Origin: Shigella phage Shfl2
Strand: one strand, 5' to 3'
DNA length: 64,000 nucleotides
Sequence record: HM035025
A program made the position numbers and the translations under genes. The number at the start of each line of letters is the position of its first letter. Position 1 is the stretch's first letter. The notes under the pieces were generated by a model, which did no database searches, was not told where the DNA came from, and saw nothing but the letters and a program-made list of their open reading frames with translations. Below are positions 29,190-38,884 of the stretch, one piece after another.

Positions 29190-29663
29190 TTATTTGAACG
29201 ATTTAACGTACTGAATAGAACCTTTACTATTCACGAAAGCGATTTTACCATTTTTATTATACATGGTAGCAGTACGCTGATAGCCGTAAGTTTGCTTACC
29301 AGATTGATAACCAACTAATGCAAAATTATCTTCACCCATTTTATTCTGTTTAGCGCGAATGCGTTCATGACCATGTGCCATAAGAACCTTAGCATCACCA
29401 GTTGCAATGGATCGACGAGTTTTTTCATCTTCAACTGTATTAACAAAGTCGTCAAATGAATCAAATTTAGCGTGAGATTTATTATACAGTTTTCCATCTA
29501 CTGCATAATTATATCCCTGTACATCCATCTCAACTTCTGTACCATCATCCAATACAGCAGTGATTTTCTGTCCTTTTTTAAATTTCAAAAGATCAGTAAA
29601 AGATTCAGCAATAATTTGAGAATTAATAGCTGCTTCAGTAATAAATTCTTGATATGTTTTCAT
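29190..29663 (-). CDS. Internal protein with capsid-targeting sequence (ipII locus; 157 aa)
   Basis: N-terminus MKTYQEFITE|AA with the (L/I)xE prohead-protease site; directly downstream of ipIII. Confidence 0.65.
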   Translation of the reverse strand: MKTYQEFITEAAINSQIIAESFTDLLKFKKGQKITAVLDDGTEVEMDVQGYNYAVDGKLYNKSHAKFDSFDDFVNTVEDEKTRRSIATGDAKVLMAHGHERIRAKQNKMGEDNFALVGYQSGKQTYGYQRTATMYNKNGKIAFVNSKGSIQYVKSFK

Positions 29664-29696: not shown

Positions 29697-29776
29697 TAAG
29701 TTTGGGACAATTCGCACGCATGAATTGTCCGTTTCTATATTTATCTATTACCGGGTTCGAACTCGGCTTTATTAAG
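29697..29776. repeat. ~80-bp direct repeat, copy B, with perfect 9-bp hairpin GGACAATTC..GAATTGTCC, between ipIII and the ipII-locus gene
   Basis: Overlaps ipIII stop codon. Confidence 0.6.
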
Positions 29777-30350
29777 AATTACCACGGGCTGCATTAGCAA
29801 CGGCATACGCGTACTGAACATTAGCGTCTTTAAACGTACCTTTAGAGGTATCTATTTCTGCCTTAAAGCCGCCTTTAGTCATAACATCGGCAAATTCTTT
29901 ACGGAAAGCCATTGCATCAAGACCTTTCCATGATGATTTATGCTTGGCGAATTCAAGACCAGCGTAGTTGACAGCCTTAGCTAATTTATTATCAATAACC
30001 CATTTACCAGCTTTAGGCACAAACTTCGGGCCTTTCTGTTTAGAGAACAGTTTTAAATTCCAGCGGCGAAGGTCACTGTCGGCTTTAACAAAAGCTGCGT
30101 CTAAGTTACTAGCAACAACATCTTCAATATGAGCAAATTTAAGTCCGTCAACTTCAATATTTAGATCGGTACGCCAGCGAAGTCCTTCCCAAGCGAAGGC
30201 TTTAAAATCGGAAGCTTTTGTAGCTAAGTATCGTTCAATAGGGGCTGTTTTAGGGTCAAAGCCGTTTCCTCGGTAAGTCCACTCGTCTTTATTAATGCCT
30301 TTGGCCTTTTCAACAGAAGCTTCAGCGATAAATTCTTTATACGTTTTCAT
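29772..30350 (-). CDS. ipIII: Internal protein III
   Basis: 192 aa; N-terminal CTS MKTYKEFIAE; near-identical to T4 IPIII as recalled. Confidence 0.85.
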   Translation of the reverse strand: MKTYKEFIAEASVEKAKGINKDEWTYRGNGFDPKTAPIERYLATKASDFKAFAWEGLRWRTDLNIEVDGLKFAHIEDVVASNLDAAFVKADSDLRRWNLKLFSKQKGPKFVPKAGKWVIDNKLAKAVNYAGLEFAKHKSSWKGLDAMAFRKEFADVMTKGGFKAEIDTSKGTFKDANVQYAYAVANAARGNS

Positions 30351-34113: not shown

Positions 34114-34389
34114 TTATTTCATATTATTGAAATATTCTTCTGCGATTTCATCGTTATCATGGTAAACTTTAGAAGACAGTTTAACATAACCTTCAGCAGT
34201 GAACATGTTAATCACAACCTTTACAGTATACCACTGACCGTCTTCATTACCCATTACTGCGTAAGTTTCAAACATCGGATGATCAGGACCGATAACTTTA
34301 ATATCATTCACCGTACGACCGAAATCTTCTGAAACACATTTCATAAAGAAGTTGAACAGTTCGCCGTAATTATCCATTTCATTCTCCAA
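34114..34389 (-). CDS. Hypothetical protein (91 aa)
   Basis: ORF track; preceded by an early promoter. Confidence 0.5.
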   Translation of the reverse strand: MENEMDNYGELFNFFMKCVSEDFGRTVNDIKVIGPDHPMFETYAVMGNEDGQWYTVKVVINMFTAEGYVKLSSKVYHDNDEIAEEYFNNMK

Positions 34390-34582: not shown

Positions 34583-34610
34583 CAAAAATCCCTATCATTT
34601 AGATAGGGAT
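34583..34610 (-). terminator. Rho-independent terminator (AUCCCUAUC-UAAAU-GAUAGGGAU + U-run)
   Basis: Perfect 9-bp stem followed by T-run, 3' of the 34617..35183 gene. Confidence 0.65.
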
Positions 34611-34616
34611 TTAAAA

Positions 34617-35183
34617 TTATTTACCCAGTTTAGTTATTATAGCTTCGGCAGCAGCTTTTAGCTTAGATGCAGTGTTAATACGATTTTTAATTTCAGTATA
34701 CGCATCGCCAAGAACATCAAGGCTATCTGAATAAACACTTACACTATTGCGTTCACTATTTGAAATAGAACCTTTAGTTTTACGATCAAAATCGGTGTAC
34801 ACGTCTTGAAGATCGCGGGCTGCCTTCTTTGCATCATCCAATGCATCAAGAGCTTTATTCAAAGCATTAACATATTTTTTAGTGTCAAACATATTCTTAG
34901 AAATTTTGACGGGTGCGCGTTCAGGAGTAGCTAAGGCAGATTTAGGAAGAACCTGTTTGCCAGATGCCAGTTTCTTAGAAATTTTAAAAAACGCTTTATT
35001 GAAATTATTTTCTTGACTCATCGTAAAAGAACTATTATCAATGTTATACATTTCAATAGCTTTAGCTTTCCACTTAAGAAAATCGCCCCGGTCTTTTGGG
35101 TCCAAGTGGAAGAATACTTTAGTAAGTTCTGCTTCAGATGGTAATTTTGCTGCTTCGGTTAAAAATTCGGCATAGGTTTTCAT
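34617..35183 (-). CDS. Capsid-targeted internal-protein-like protein (188 aa)
   Basis: N-terminus MKTYAEFLTE|AAK with the same CTS/protease-site pattern as ipII/ipIII. Confidence 0.6.
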   Translation of the reverse strand: MKTYAEFLTEAAKLPSEAELTKVFFHLDPKDRGDFLKWKAKAIEMYNIDNSSFTMSQENNFNKAFFKISKKLASGKQVLPKSALATPERAPVKISKNMFDTKKYVNALNKALDALDDAKKAARDLQDVYTDFDRKTKGSISNSERNSVSVYSDSLDVLGDAYTEIKNRINTASKLKAAAEAIITKLGK

Positions 35184-35275
35184 TTAAAATCCTTGAAATA
35201 ATTTATCGGTCGGTTATTAATTATTTATTTATTACTTTGTTATTATCCGTAACAGCATTCTCTATGTGATTCAAA

Positions 35276-35305
35276 CTAAAAAGCCCCAACCTTTCGGTCG
35301 GGGCT
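35276..35305 (-). terminator. Rho-independent terminator (GCCCCGACC-GAAA-GGUUGGGGC + U-run) ending the small-RNA region
   Basis: Strong hairpin with GAAA loop followed by TTTTT on the minus strand. Confidence 0.7.
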
Positions 35306-35610
35306 AAGCCTTGCGGCAACCTTGTCGGGGTTCCACCTGCTAAGGCAAGTGTTTGTACGAAACGCCGGGATTCGAACCCGGTTATTAAGCAGTTGACGCT
35401 ACTCAATATTTTTAAAAGGCCATATCTCGACCATATCCGAACGTTCCGTCAAAAACGCTACTCGGCTTATGGCAAAGATATTTCCTCGAATCGATAATTC
35501 GGTGCGCCGTTTCTGCTGTGATAGTAAAGAATCAGAACACAGTAAAACTGTGGGAGAAACTATACTCCAGGGAACATCAGTCCGACGACTTACCGGTAGC
35601 GACCCGGCTT
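35306..35610 (-). ncRNA. Probable stable small RNA(s) with tRNA-like T-arm and acceptor pairing (resembles the T4 RNA C/D region)
   Basis: No coherent ORF; perfect T-arm CCGGG-TTCGAAT-CCCGG; 8-bp acceptor-like pairing ACGGAACG/CGTTTCGT; GC-rich. Confidence 0.4.
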
Positions 35611-35611
35611 C

Positions 35612-35962
35612 TTAATATTCTTTTAAAGCATCAATATGTTCACGGCGTTTACGCCATAAATCAATTGCTTCATACGCGGATTCAACATTTCGAATTGGAC
35701 GGCATTTATATAAAGATTTGTGATTTTGATATTGTGTAGATAACGGAATTTTATCTAAAAGGTCTTTACGTTCAAAATATTCGTAACCATCTAAACCAAA
35801 TGAACGATTTTTGAGAAATTGCCAATGACCATATTCATTTTCAACATAAATATAATCTGCGTGCTGATAAAGCAAATTAATTATACGTTCAGAAATAACA
35901 GTATCATTATGATTAAAATAGAATGTTAAATCATGAACTACTAAATAAACATTACCTTTCAT
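35612..35962 (-). CDS. Hypothetical protein (~116 aa; ORF track start at 36010 lies inside tRNA-Arg)
   Basis: ATG at 35962 with SD GTGAGGAAAA, just 3' of tRNA-Arg. Confidence 0.5.
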   Translation of the reverse strand: MKGNVYLVVHDLTFYFNHNDTVISERIINLLYQHADYIYVENEYGHWQFLKNRSFGLDGYEYFERKDLLDKIPLSTQYQNHKSLYKCRPIRNVESAYEAIDLWRKRREHIDALKEY

Positions 35963-35980: not shown

Positions 35981-36057
35981 TGGTCGAGACAGAAGGATTC
36001 TAACCTTCAACCCACGGATTAGAAGTCCGTTGCTCTATACAATTGAGCTATGCCTCG
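35981..36057 (-). tRNA. tRNA-Arg (anticodon UCU), CCA encoded
   Basis: Manual fold: acceptor CGAGGCA/TGTCTCG, anticodon loop CTTCTAA, T-loop GGTTAGAATCC. Confidence 0.8.
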
Positions 36058-36061
36058 TATT

Positions 36062-36136
36062 TGGCGGACGTGATAGGATTCGAACCTATAACCAATCGCT
36101 TAACAGGCGATCGCTCTGCCATTGAGCTACACATCC
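36062..36136 (-). tRNA. tRNA-Asn (anticodon GUU), CCA encoded
   Basis: Manual fold: acceptor GGATGTG/CACGTCC, anticodon stem ATCGC/GCGAT, loop CTGTTAA, T-loop TTCGAAT. Confidence 0.7.
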
Positions 36137-36140
36137 AAAT

Positions 36141-36227
36141 TGGTGGGGAGTGATGGAGTCGAACCACCCGAGTCGCAATGACAATGGATTTACAGTCCAC
36201 ACCGCTACCTCTACGGGATAACTCCCC
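36141..36227 (-). tRNA. tRNA-Tyr (anticodon GUA), class II with long variable arm, CCA encoded
   Basis: Manual fold: acceptor GGGGAGT/ACTCCCC, anticodon loop CTGTAAA, long variable arm resembling bacterial tRNA-Tyr. Confidence 0.65.
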
Positions 36228-36236
36228 AAATTAATT

Positions 36237-36311
36237 TGGTGGCCCTGGGTGGAATTGAACCACCATCTGGCGATTATGAGTCGCTTGCTTGAACCTTCCA
36301 GCTACAGGGCC
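36237..36311 (-). tRNA. tRNA-Ile/Met (anticodon CAU), CCA encoded
   Basis: Manual fold: acceptor GGCCCTG/CAGGGCC, anticodon loop CTCATAA. Confidence 0.75.
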
Positions 36312-36312
36312 T

Positions 36313-36388
36313 TGGTGCTGATTGACGGAATCGAACCGCCGACGTCCTCATTACAAGTGAGGTGCTCTACCTACTGAGCTAAATCAGC
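36313..36388 (-). tRNA. tRNA-Thr (anticodon UGU), CCA encoded
   Basis: Manual fold: acceptor GCTGATT/AATCAGC, anticodon loop CTTGTAA, T-loop GGTTCGATTCC. Confidence 0.8.
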
Positions 36389-36390
36389 AA

Positions 36391-36477
36391 CGGAGGCGAT
36401 AGGATTTGAACCTATGAGTCGCCGGAGCGACTGCCGGTTTTCAAGACCGGTGCATTAAACCACTCTGCCACGCCTCC
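36391..36477 (-). tRNA. tRNA-Ser (anticodon UGA), class II, CCA not encoded
   Basis: Manual fold: acceptor GGAGGCG/CGCCTCC, anticodon loop CTTGAAA, long variable arm. Confidence 0.8.
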
Positions 36478-36479
36478 AG

Positions 36480-36553
36480 TCTCCGTGGCAGGATTTGAAC
36501 CTACGACATTCTGCTCCCAAAGCAGACGCTCTACCAAACTGAGCTACACGGAG
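36480..36553 (-). tRNA. tRNA-Pro (anticodon UGG), CCA not encoded
   Basis: Manual fold: acceptor CTCCGTG/CACGGAG, anticodon loop TTTGGGA. Confidence 0.8.
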
Positions 36554-36563
36554 TAAATTAAAT

Positions 36564-36637
<74 letters not shown>

Positions 36638-36642
36638 AAATT

Positions 36643-36729
36643 TGGTGCGAGAAGTGGGACTCGAACCCACAAGGAAATCATTCCGCAGCATTTTAAGTGC
36701 TGTGCCTTTACCAATTTGGCCATTCTCGC
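36643..36729 (-). tRNA. tRNA-Leu (anticodon UAA), class II, CCA encoded
   Basis: Manual fold: acceptor GCGAGAA/TTCTCGC, anticodon loop CTTAAAA, long variable arm. Confidence 0.8.
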
Positions 36730-36730
36730 G

Positions 36731-36803
36731 CTGGGAATAAAGGACTCGAACCTTTGCATCCTGGAATCAAAATCCAGTGCCTTACCAACTTGGCTAATTC
36801 CCA
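36731..36803 (-). tRNA. tRNA-Gln (anticodon UUG)
   Basis: Manual fold: acceptor TGGGAAT/ATTCCCA, anticodon loop TTTTGAT; first tRNA of the transcript. Confidence 0.8.
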
Positions 36804-37601: not shown

Positions 37602-37787
37602 TTATTCACCTTTAGAAATTTTATCCATAACGATAGCGATTAAACCAATTAAAAATGCTACTACAAGTGAAAACACATTTTCTGTTGTAGTTAATAATCC
37701 GCATATAAATCCAGCAAACATTGAAAAACTAAAAGCGGAAGCAGAAATTGCAATAGCAACATTTCGAATTAATTCACAACGTTTCAT
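37602..37787 (-). CDS. Small membrane protein (61 aa, 2 TM helices)
   Basis: ORF track; hydrophobic throughout. Confidence 0.5.
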   Translation of the reverse strand: MKRCELIRNVAIAISASAFSFSMFAGFICGLLTTTENVFSLVVAFLIGLIAIVMDKISKGE

Positions 37788-37815
37788 TTTATTCTCCTCA
37801 GTAGTTGATAGGGTA

Positions 37816-37845
37816 ATAGTATCACAACTAAAACCCTATGTAAAC
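37816..37845 (-). promoter_or_regulatory. Early promoter cassette (-35 GTTTAC, -10 TACTAT) with ATAGGGT..ACCCTAT stem-loop
   Basis: Member of repeated promoter family; upstream flank nearly identical to the 38146-38175 copy. Confidence 0.55.
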
Positions 37846-37857
37846 AACTTTGTGAAA

Positions 37858-38115
37858 TTATTTTAAATCTTCTAATCGTTTCTTCATCTTAGAACCGTTC
37901 TTAGCGATTTCGCCTGCATCAGAGCATAATGCTAAAAGCGCTTTAACTTTAGTTTGGTCTCCTTTAAAAGATGAAGGATCGACTGCAGCAGCAAGTTCTT
38001 TAATACGAGAAAAAAGACGCTCAGCTTCAGCTAAAGCCATTCCAAGTTTTACTTCCATACCGTGGGAAGATTCAGTGATAGTAGTTTTTGTAGCAAACTC
38101 TTTGAAAGTTTTCAT
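37858..38115 (-). CDS. Internal-protein-like protein with capsid-targeting sequence (ipI locus; 85 aa)
   Basis: N-terminus MKTFKEFATKTTITE|S; adjacent to 57B as ipI is in T4. Confidence 0.6.
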   Translation of the reverse strand: MKTFKEFATKTTITESSHGMEVKLGMALAEAERLFSRIKELAAAVDPSSFKGDQTKVKALLALCSDAGEIAKNGSKMKKRLEDLK

Positions 38116-38145
38116 TTTATTTTCCTAATTAATTTTGATGAGGTA

Positions 38146-38175
38146 ATAGTATCACTACCTCATCAGCATGTAAAC
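38146..38175 (-). promoter_or_regulatory. Early promoter cassette (-35 GTTTAC, -10 TACTAT) with TGATGAGGTA..TACCTCATCA stem-loop
   Basis: Member of repeated promoter family. Confidence 0.55.
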
Positions 38176-38187
38176 AACTTTGTGAAA

Positions 38188-38884
<697 letters not shown>

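Follow-up and report, generated by a model that had tools for sequence, protein, structure and literature searches.

Shfl2p135 and its cassette

In the 64,000-nucleotide stretch of Shigella phage Shfl2 analysed here (sequence record HM035025; the whole stretch is referred to as the window), the gene Shfl2p135 is encoded on the minus strand at positions 34617..35183, and specifies from an ATG start a protein of 188 amino acids (aa) that belongs to the family PHROG 2280 and is predicted to be an internal head protein precursor. The original prediction had proposed here an open reading frame (ORF) of 188 aa beginning MKTYAEFLTE|AAK, with its strand unstated. The ORF list confirms it and places it on the minus strand, the plus-strand translation of the same interval being riddled with stops, and gives the start of the product as MKTYAEFLTEAAK / MKTYAEFLTEAAKLPSEAELTK. 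The Shfl2p135 protein is 100% identical to this ORF of the window. The evidence collected below makes it quite likely that Shfl2p135 is a genuine internal protein (IP) of the T-even head, of family PHROG 2280, and that it occupies a third ip locus situated between e.8 and the rnaC/tRNA cluster.

Full-length matches to Shfl2p135 were detected by tblastn in 163 phage records, with protein identities of 85-100%, those of the orthologs from Tequatrovirus being 95-99%. Because of these 163 records and of a ratio of non-synonymous to synonymous polymorphism (pN/pS) of 0.06-0.11, as calculated against the Bas37 and RB14 orthologs, the ORF is to be regarded as a real gene. Product names among the 60 matches listed are the generic 'hypothetical protein' or 'Phage protein', or else the record is unannotated. 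The RB14 ortholog, placed between e.8 and the tRNAs, is annotated 'RB14ncORF136c hypothetical protein'.

On the minus strand, genes follow each other in the order ip4, ipIII, e, nudE, e.2-e.6, a small ORF, e.8 (34114-34389) and Shfl2p135, and then come rnaC/rnaD (about 35356-35615), both positioned by homology to T4, Rfam holding no model of either. Beyond them are found a 116-aa ORF, ten tRNAs (35981-36803), trna.2-trna.4, ip5 and 57B. Two further elements of the original prediction, namely that the gene lies outside the classical ip loci and that T4 has no IP gene at this position, turned out to be correct, since Shfl2p135 sits between e.8 and rnaC, where T4 has just a 284-bp gap. Upon blastn comparison, T4 and the window align in two blocks that meet at the ends of a cassette of 694 bp (34584..35277, minus strand), made up of a promoter-like region, the ORF and a terminator, that is precisely absent from T4. 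The T4 terminator downstream of rnaC reads ...GGTTGGGGCTTTTT|GGTATCTAAGCC..., and the 694 bp of the window are inserted exactly at the bar. Thus, the junction is GGGGCTTTTT|GGTATCTA in T4 and GGGGCTTTTT|AGTTTGAATC in the window, the cassette starting with AGTTTGAATCAC and GGTATCTAGGCC resuming beyond its end. An ortholog with 97% identity is carried by a record named 'Escherichia phage T4_ev151' (LR597660.1, 65658-66218); reference T4 being without the cassette, T4_ev151 is therefore a recombinant, or does not derive from T4 at this locus.

The cassette is bounded upstream by the G+C-rich terminator hairpin with T-run that lies downstream of rnaC (35278..35305, minus strand), as found in the terminator scan, and downstream by the own terminator hairpin of Shfl2p135, AAATCCCTATC-TAAAT-GATAGGGATTTTT (34584..34612, minus strand), placed 4 nt past the stop codon. 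Ahead of the coding sequence, a Shine-Dalgarno sequence AAGGA (35190..35194, minus strand) precedes the ATG by 6 nt. A candidate late promoter is formed, ~40 nt upstream of the ATG, by a pair of overlapping AATAAATA motifs (35222..35233, minus strand), each with a 7/8 match to the T4 late promoter TATAAATA. A sigma-70-like site upstream of the gene is weak (9/12 match). Two hypervariable ip loci, denV-e and trna.4-57B, are described in the literature, and promoter and stem-loop repeats have been proposed to shuffle the cassettes of ip loci. Judging from sequence, the logic of the Shfl2p135 leader, together with the insertion of a terminator-bounded cassette, appears to echo this shuffling.

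Predicted capsid-targeting leader and processing, and protein family

Codons 1-10 of Shfl2p135 (35154..35183, minus strand) encode the predicted capsid-targeting propeptide MKTYAEFLTE, with cleavage by the prohead protease gp21 predicted after Glu10 (LTE|A). According to the review by Black of the work of Mullaney and Black, experiments on IPIII identified leader positions 4 and 7 as decisive for targeting and positions 8 and 10 as decisive for processing, and the 10-residue leader alone suffices to package and process foreign proteins. All four decisive positions are filled in Shfl2p135 by Y4, F7, L8 and E10, and [LI]xE occurs just once in the protein, as L8-T9-E10|A11. The capsid-targeting sequence with an (L/I)xE site that had been proposed for this protein is thus supported by these residues, as well as by a 33-sequence alignment in which at least 90% of rows retain Glu10 while identity to the window protein elsewhere is 13-28%. 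Among the rows without Glu10, P0044 and P0049 are N-terminally truncated and P0042 is gapped there. The N-terminus in this alignment reads M-[K/I/L]-[T/N/K/R]-[Y/F]-x-[E/Q/D]-[F/I]-[L/I/T]-x-E, and M-x-x-[Y/F]-x-[E/Q/D]-[F/I]-x-x-E is the leader common to full-length family members.

The matching leaders that the original prediction had attributed to the ipIII, ipII-locus and ipI-locus proteins are all present in the window, namely MKTYKEFIAE in ipIII (29772-30350), MKTYQEFITE in the ipII-locus gene (29190-29663) and MKTFKEFATKTTITE in the ipI-locus gene, which is of Ip5 type (37858-38115). When the 165 ATG-initiated ORFs of at least 50 aa in the six frames of the window were scanned with the relaxed pattern M-x-x-[YFW]-x-[EQD]-[FIL]-x-x-E, three of them matched, each at its first Met: Shfl2p135, ipIII and the ipII-locus gene. 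Since the relaxed pattern is confined to IP-type genes among these 165 ORFs, the leader resemblance is not attributable to chance, and the objection of a coincidental N-terminal similarity is not upheld. Co-variation of the leader with the other IP leaders of the same phage was also considered and is not supported, the KMB17 member starting MINFKQFIAE as against MKTY... in the other leader-bearing ORFs of the 30-kb stretch scanned.

These results bear on the alternative that the leader likeness is coincidental or vestigial and that Shfl2p135 stays out of the head, as an ordinary early protein of the cytoplasm. Such an alternative might invoke the lack of an exact late promoter, the weak sigma-70-like site and the fact that the literature search found no direct virion evidence. 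On the contrary, no short segment is better conserved than the leader in a family that otherwise shows 13-28% identity, paralogs and neighbouring genes bear it too, and its pattern is absent from the ORFs of the window other than the IP-type genes, all of which makes a non-packaged protein very improbable. Hence, from its sequence, Shfl2p135 is likely to be a leader-packaged and gp21-processed head protein.

The predicted mature protein (residues 11-188) starts at Ala11 with the peptide AAKLPSEAELTK and has 178 aa, a mass of 19.8 kDa, an isoelectric point (pI) of 9.54, 32 K+R and 23 D+E. These features closely resemble those of the mature IPIII of the window (182 aa, 20.3 kDa, pI 9.58), whose K+R and D+E counts are the same. 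Additionally, the IPIII leader MKTYKEFIAE compares well with the MKTYAEFLTE of Shfl2p135, cleavage being expected after Glu10 in both, and both are stand-alone genes with a hairpin after each. On the contrary, no homology to IPIII was detected by hhalign beyond residue about 12-20 (probability 16%; aligned residues 1-31), and the alignment with Ip4 covers residues 1-21 only. Absence of homology beyond the leader is the rule among IPs, and Shfl2p135 fits this rule because its sequence resembles those of IPIII and Ip4 no further than the leader. Both this ending of homology and the IPIII-like size and charge of the mature protein suggest that Shfl2p135 would follow the standard IP pathway.

Over its full length, Shfl2p135 matches phrog_2280 ('unknown function') with E=1.7e-53, its residues 1-182 covering profile positions 1-178 of 178. 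JS98 orf135, gp153 and gp154 of fHe-Yen9-01, the KMB17 member and bas37_0244 likewise match PHROG 2280. Searches of Shfl2p135 against Pfam returned sub-threshold helical noise only, those against NCBIfam no match, and the profile search of PDB sequences nothing below E=0.1. Across 1.8 billion representatives, phmmer found one distant relative with 31% identity (P0013), which begins MITFNEFLNE|SEMINE|A. Iterating from this relative gathered 46 proteins and about 190 further phage records, from Karamvirus, Dhakavirus, Tegunavirus and other T4-like phages of Klebsiella, Enterobacter, Serratia and Cronobacter. In the 33-sequence alignment, sequences outside the clade of the window protein show 13-28% identity to it.

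A structure model produced by AlphaFold2 (AF2) with the 33-sequence alignment, with a mean predicted local distance difference test (pLDDT) score of 80.6, suggests a two-domain organization. Residues 17-74 (34962..35135, minus strand) would form a small N-terminal helical domain, a block with pLDDT of about 80-86 that is second only to the leader in conservation within the family, with K37, Y46, I48, A64 and F65 invariant in the alignment. Residues 75-100 (34884..34961, minus strand; alignment columns 80-140) correspond to a predicted disordered linker rich in Lys, Pro and Ala, with pLDDT <50 at residues 77-90, that in other genera is longer and richer in PAK. Finally, residues 101-188 (34620..34883, minus strand) are modelled as a C-terminal three-helix bundle with pLDDT of 88-95. 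This last domain is common to the paralog bas37_0244, as hhalign also indicates (probability 80%, E=1.3e-5, with the C-terminal domain aligned), although it occurs in two alternative types in the 33-sequence alignment, some relatives differing from the type of the window.

Candidate function and insertion intolerance in Bas37

In the mechanism proposed here, the cassette itself would drive transcription of Shfl2p135, probably through a promoter of late type. As its sequence and the IPIII leader experiments suggest, MKTYAEFLTE would attach the precursor to the scaffolding core while the prohead is being assembled, and gp21 would then cut after Glu10 in L-T-E|A, leaving in the head a protein of 178 aa, 19.8 kDa and pI 9.5. 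By analogy with other IPs, the mature protein would exit the head with the DNA and act in the new host cell before phage gene expression. To our knowledge, no phage product other than internal proteins is present in the cell when the DNA enters. Function is the weakest step of this mechanism. The original prediction had considered the protein a candidate injected effector, which is reasonable by analogy with Ip1-3, inhibitors of GmrSD enzymes, and with Bas37_0260, a leader protein of the ipI locus shown to inhibit McrBC (bioRxiv 10.1101/2025.11.20.689424). On this basis, we tentatively envisage that Shfl2p135 might shield the entering phage DNA by inhibiting a host defence, which is how the four functionally characterised T-even IPs act.

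Information on an ortholog is available from the HIDEN-SEQ preprint (bioRxiv 10.1101/2025.11.20.689424; Extended Data Table 7, Data S2), which reports transposon insertion sequencing (Tn-seq) of a saturated Himar1 library of phage Bas37 and scores genes as 'Essential' at saturation <0.2. Gene bas37_0243, whose product is 96% identical to the window protein, shows insertions in 1/48 TA sites (saturation 0.02) and is scored Essential. The surrounding genes bas37_0240 (42/44 TA sites with insertion), bas37_0241 (13/13), bas37_0242 (23/23), bas37_0244 (29/34) and bas37_0245 (33/38) are all Non-essential, and so are, in the HIDEN-SEQ data, T4 ipI, ipII and ipIII as well as bas37_0260 and bas37_0261. 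The main text of the preprint does not mention bas37_0243. Its read counts of about 0.2 in K-12 and CFT073 samples alike show only that the mutants are absent from the reference library. In the same study, six known dispensable T4 genes were called essential, and its authors concede locus effects. The call for bas37_0243 may thus be due to a loss of redundancy, to a requirement particular to K-12, as with dmd/RnlAB, or to an artefact.

Several observations weigh against Shfl2p135 being an internal protein of the kind proposed: (i) it resides in neither of the classical ip loci, denV-e and trna.4-57B; (ii) no exact TATAAATA late promoter is present upstream of the gene, the best site being the 7/8 match AATAAATA; (iii) its conservation is high (95-99% identity in Tequatrovirus, pN/pS about 0.1), unlike that of the hypervariable IP genes; (iv) a literature search on virion proteomics, cleavage or injection of PHROG 2280 members, by carrier phage (fPS-65/90, fD1 and Tequatrovirus among them) and by gene identifier, returned nothing usable; (v) no likeness in sequence or fold to a known anti-defence protein or a characterised type IV inhibitor was found, PADLOC not having been searched; and (vi) on E. 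coli K-12, bas37_0243 received an Essential score, whereas the other IP genes checked were Non-essential. Taken by its predicted leader and cleavage site, Shfl2p135 is an IP, one that departs from two customary attributes of the class, a classical locus and dispensability. What is out of the ordinary is its conservation across genera, its two-domain architecture and the existence of one insertion-intolerant member, that of Bas37.

Regarding the last of these features, the Essential score might be technical or specific to the locus, due to a deletion of the cassette in the laboratory stock, a cold spot for transposition or toxic leader fragments, the gene being then an ordinary dispensable IP. 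The repeated terminator sequences that bound the cassette could indeed mediate its precise loss, T4 does without the gene, phages with natural truncations of it are viable, and the gene goes undiscussed by the authors of the preprint. Nonetheless, saturation of the flanking bas37_0240-0242, bas37_0244 and bas37_0245 at 85-100% of their TA sites indicates no regional effect; the gene is single-copy in Bas37 (one tblastn match), so mappability is not at issue; and the tolerance of other leader-bearing genes to insertions indicates that truncated leader fragments are not generally toxic. A technical origin of the score is therefore regarded as rather unlikely.

The content of IP genes in Bas37 is relevant to a second alternative. 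In this phage denV is directly followed by e, the ipII/ipIII locus being empty (MZ501089 136352-137322; L009 16353-17323), and tblastn over the whole genome found none of ipI, ipII, ip4 or ipIII. Its leader-bearing ORFs are bas37_0243, bas37_0244, bas37_0260, bas37_0261 and the 54-aa bas37_0146. Since Bas37 is devoid of ipI, ipII, ip4 and ipIII, bas37_0243 encodes its only ~20-kDa IP. As a separate observation, bas37_0146 (L010 43173-43337, minus strand) adjoins the primase gene and starts MKTYKEFIKE, being thus a leader-bearing mini-gene at yet another site.

The second alternative is that Shfl2p135 is packaged but has a mainly structural or housekeeping role, in that, like IPIII, it would make up part of the bulk of the prohead core or condensed DNA and be required for head assembly, DNA packing or ejection to be efficient, and that it becomes indispensable where the ipII/ipIII locus has been lost, as in Bas37. 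The near-identity with IPIII in size, charge and K+R / D+E counts agrees with such a role, as do the strong purifying selection on a gene that is near-invariant over 163 records, the maintenance of the family at a syntenic site across genera, and the Essential score of the sole ~20-kDa IP of Bas37. Against it, the gene is missing from T4 and most Tequatroviruses, and, with ipIII in 259 records and this gene in 163, as compared with 707 that share the region, many phages have neither. Moreover, T4 ipIII is dispensable and is now known as a GmrSD inhibitor, and viable phages bear truncated alleles, namely RB69, where the ortholog is broken into ORF148c and ORF149c, OE5505, with 106 aa, and HZ_ZJUN4, where residues 1-174 are covered. 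Altogether, a bulk core or DNA-associated function in head assembly or ejection is judged doubtful. The stricter proposal that every T-even phage needs either ipIII or Shfl2p135 was rejected as a general rule, 259 plus 163 records falling short of 707.

Under the third explanation, Shfl2p135 is injected to inhibit one particular host defence, and the 'essentiality' seen in Bas37 is conditional, reflecting the neutralisation of a system present in E. coli K-12, similarly to dmd and RnlAB. All four functionally characterised T-even IPs inhibit type IV restriction, dmd was essential in the same Tn-seq study purely through the RnlAB of K-12, and delivery of a pre-made protein fits a factor needed ahead of phage transcription. 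Nevertheless, T4 grows on K-12 without the gene, and the read counts shared by the K-12 and CFT073 samples say nothing on conditionality. The high conservation of the gene also differs from the diversifying pattern described for anti-restriction IPs, and no likeness to a Pfam-type or solved anti-defence protein was detected (PADLOC again not included). We hold this explanation to be possible, albeit with odds below even. A more encompassing proposal, which we consider unlikely as it stands, is that PHROG 2280 constitutes a family of injected or packaged IPs whose role is indispensable, at any rate in phages without an ipII/ipIII locus, such as Bas37, either as a component of the head core or of DNA ejection or as an obligatory antidote to a K-12 defence. 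If true, its members would be the first essential internal proteins of T-even phages, and their site a third conserved ip locus across Tevenvirinae.

The e.8-rnaC site in other phages and neighbouring features

The position between e.8 and rnaC is occupied by related genes in other genera of Tevenvirinae, with identities of 13-30% and frequently as paralogs in tandem. JS98 is syntenic, with the order tRNAs, orf136, orf135 (the homolog) and e.8, and in KMB17 the homolog adjoins an 86-aa ORF at the equivalent map position. In Bas37 (phage KarlGJung, MZ501089), bas37_0244, whose PHROG 2280 product starts MKSYTQFLNE|AVLNE|A, sits between the rnaC terminator and the ortholog bas37_0243; a perfect TATAAATA lies 38 nt ahead of its start codon, and a duplicate of the rnaC terminator comes after it. 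From this extra unit it follows that the locus grew by addition of promoter-ORF-terminator units. Yersinia phage fHe-Yen9-01 has a tandem PHROG 2280 pair too, gp154 and gp153, each with a leader. Thus, the e.8-rnaC site is a recurrent third ip locus, with one or two such genes in several genera. What is new here is a conserved and unannotated family, of IPs as its sequences suggest, at this third locus; the '>30 IP variants' cited in the literature may include it, and IPs are not discussed in Petrov 2010.

As a separate observation, the neighbour of P0013 on a metagenomic contig (L003 2092-2526, plus strand) begins MITFKQFLNE|SKYSN... and is fused to a Pfam ART-PolyVal/DUF3990 domain, being by its sequence a candidate head-packaged, injected ADP-ribosyltransferase-like protein. 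This leader-tagged ART-PolyVal neighbour implies that PHROG 2280-type genes cluster as cargo genes.

Comparison with known head-packaged proteins situates Shfl2p135 more precisely. IPI*, Ip2 and Bas37_0260 resemble it in combining an N-terminal packaging leader with an unrelated cargo domain in a small basic protein encoded by a shufflable cassette. They differ in that they belong to the ipI or ipII/III loci, have 77-100 aa, vary between phages and are dispensable on permissive hosts, whereas Shfl2p135 has 188 aa and two domains, is highly conserved and occupies the third locus, an inhibitory activity being in its case putative. Similarly, IPIII differs in locus, in being dispensable in T4 Tn-seq and in inhibiting a GmrSD variant, the Shfl2p135 ortholog being insertion-intolerant. 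The closest resemblance is with bas37_0244 and fHe-Yen9-01 gp153, which share PHROG and locus (bas37_0244 being immediately upstream in Bas37) as well as the succession of leader, N-terminal domain, Lys/Pro/Ala linker and helical C-terminal domain, the latter homologous. In turn, bas37_0244 has another N-terminal domain, is non-essential, possesses a perfect TATAAATA and is not in the Shfl2 window. Finally, T4 Alt and Inh also enter the prohead and undergo trimming by gp21 at (L/I)xE sites, and Alt is injected with the DNA according to the review by Black. Alt is, on the contrary, a 70-kDa enzyme with propeptides at both ends, as compared with the 10-residue leader of IPs, and no enzymatic domain is detectable in Shfl2p135.

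Recognition of a third locus would enlarge the catalogue of candidate injected effectors, including the leader-tagged ADP-ribosyltransferase-like neighbour found in one relative, and would offer phage engineers another natural cargo slot. It would also flag an unremarked Tn-seq result, that one member is insertion-intolerant on a laboratory host.

Other features of the surrounding region deserve mention. The 116-aa ORF (35612-35962, minus strand), beginning MKGNVYLVVHD... and belonging to PHROG 3355 (unknown function), lies between tRNA-Arg and rnaD; in T4, which is without it, tRNA-Arg abuts rnaD. Its Bas37 ortholog is bas37_0245, non-essential in Tn-seq. The adjacent tRNA cluster (35981-36803, minus strand) has 10 genes as compared with 8 in T4, tRNA-Asn and tRNA-Tyr being extra, and is without the homing endonuclease segB; the call 'tRNA-Met (CAT)' within it corresponds to the tRNA-Ile type of T4/RB14.

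Regarding the classical ip loci of the window, the ipII-locus protein (29190-29663, minus strand) shows a full-length match to Pfam DUF7412 (E=5.7e-96) and is the 'Ip4' of the RB14 annotation. From this match it follows that Shfl2 has Ip4 replacing the IPII of T4, and Ip5 replacing IPI. The ip5-like gene (37858-38115) is flanked on both sides, within 37780-38230 of the minus strand, by near-identical units consisting of AAATAATTTCACAAAGTTGTTTACA, a stem-loop and TACTAT. An early promoter and a hairpin make up each unit, and it is by repeats of this type that ip cassettes have been proposed to be shuffled.

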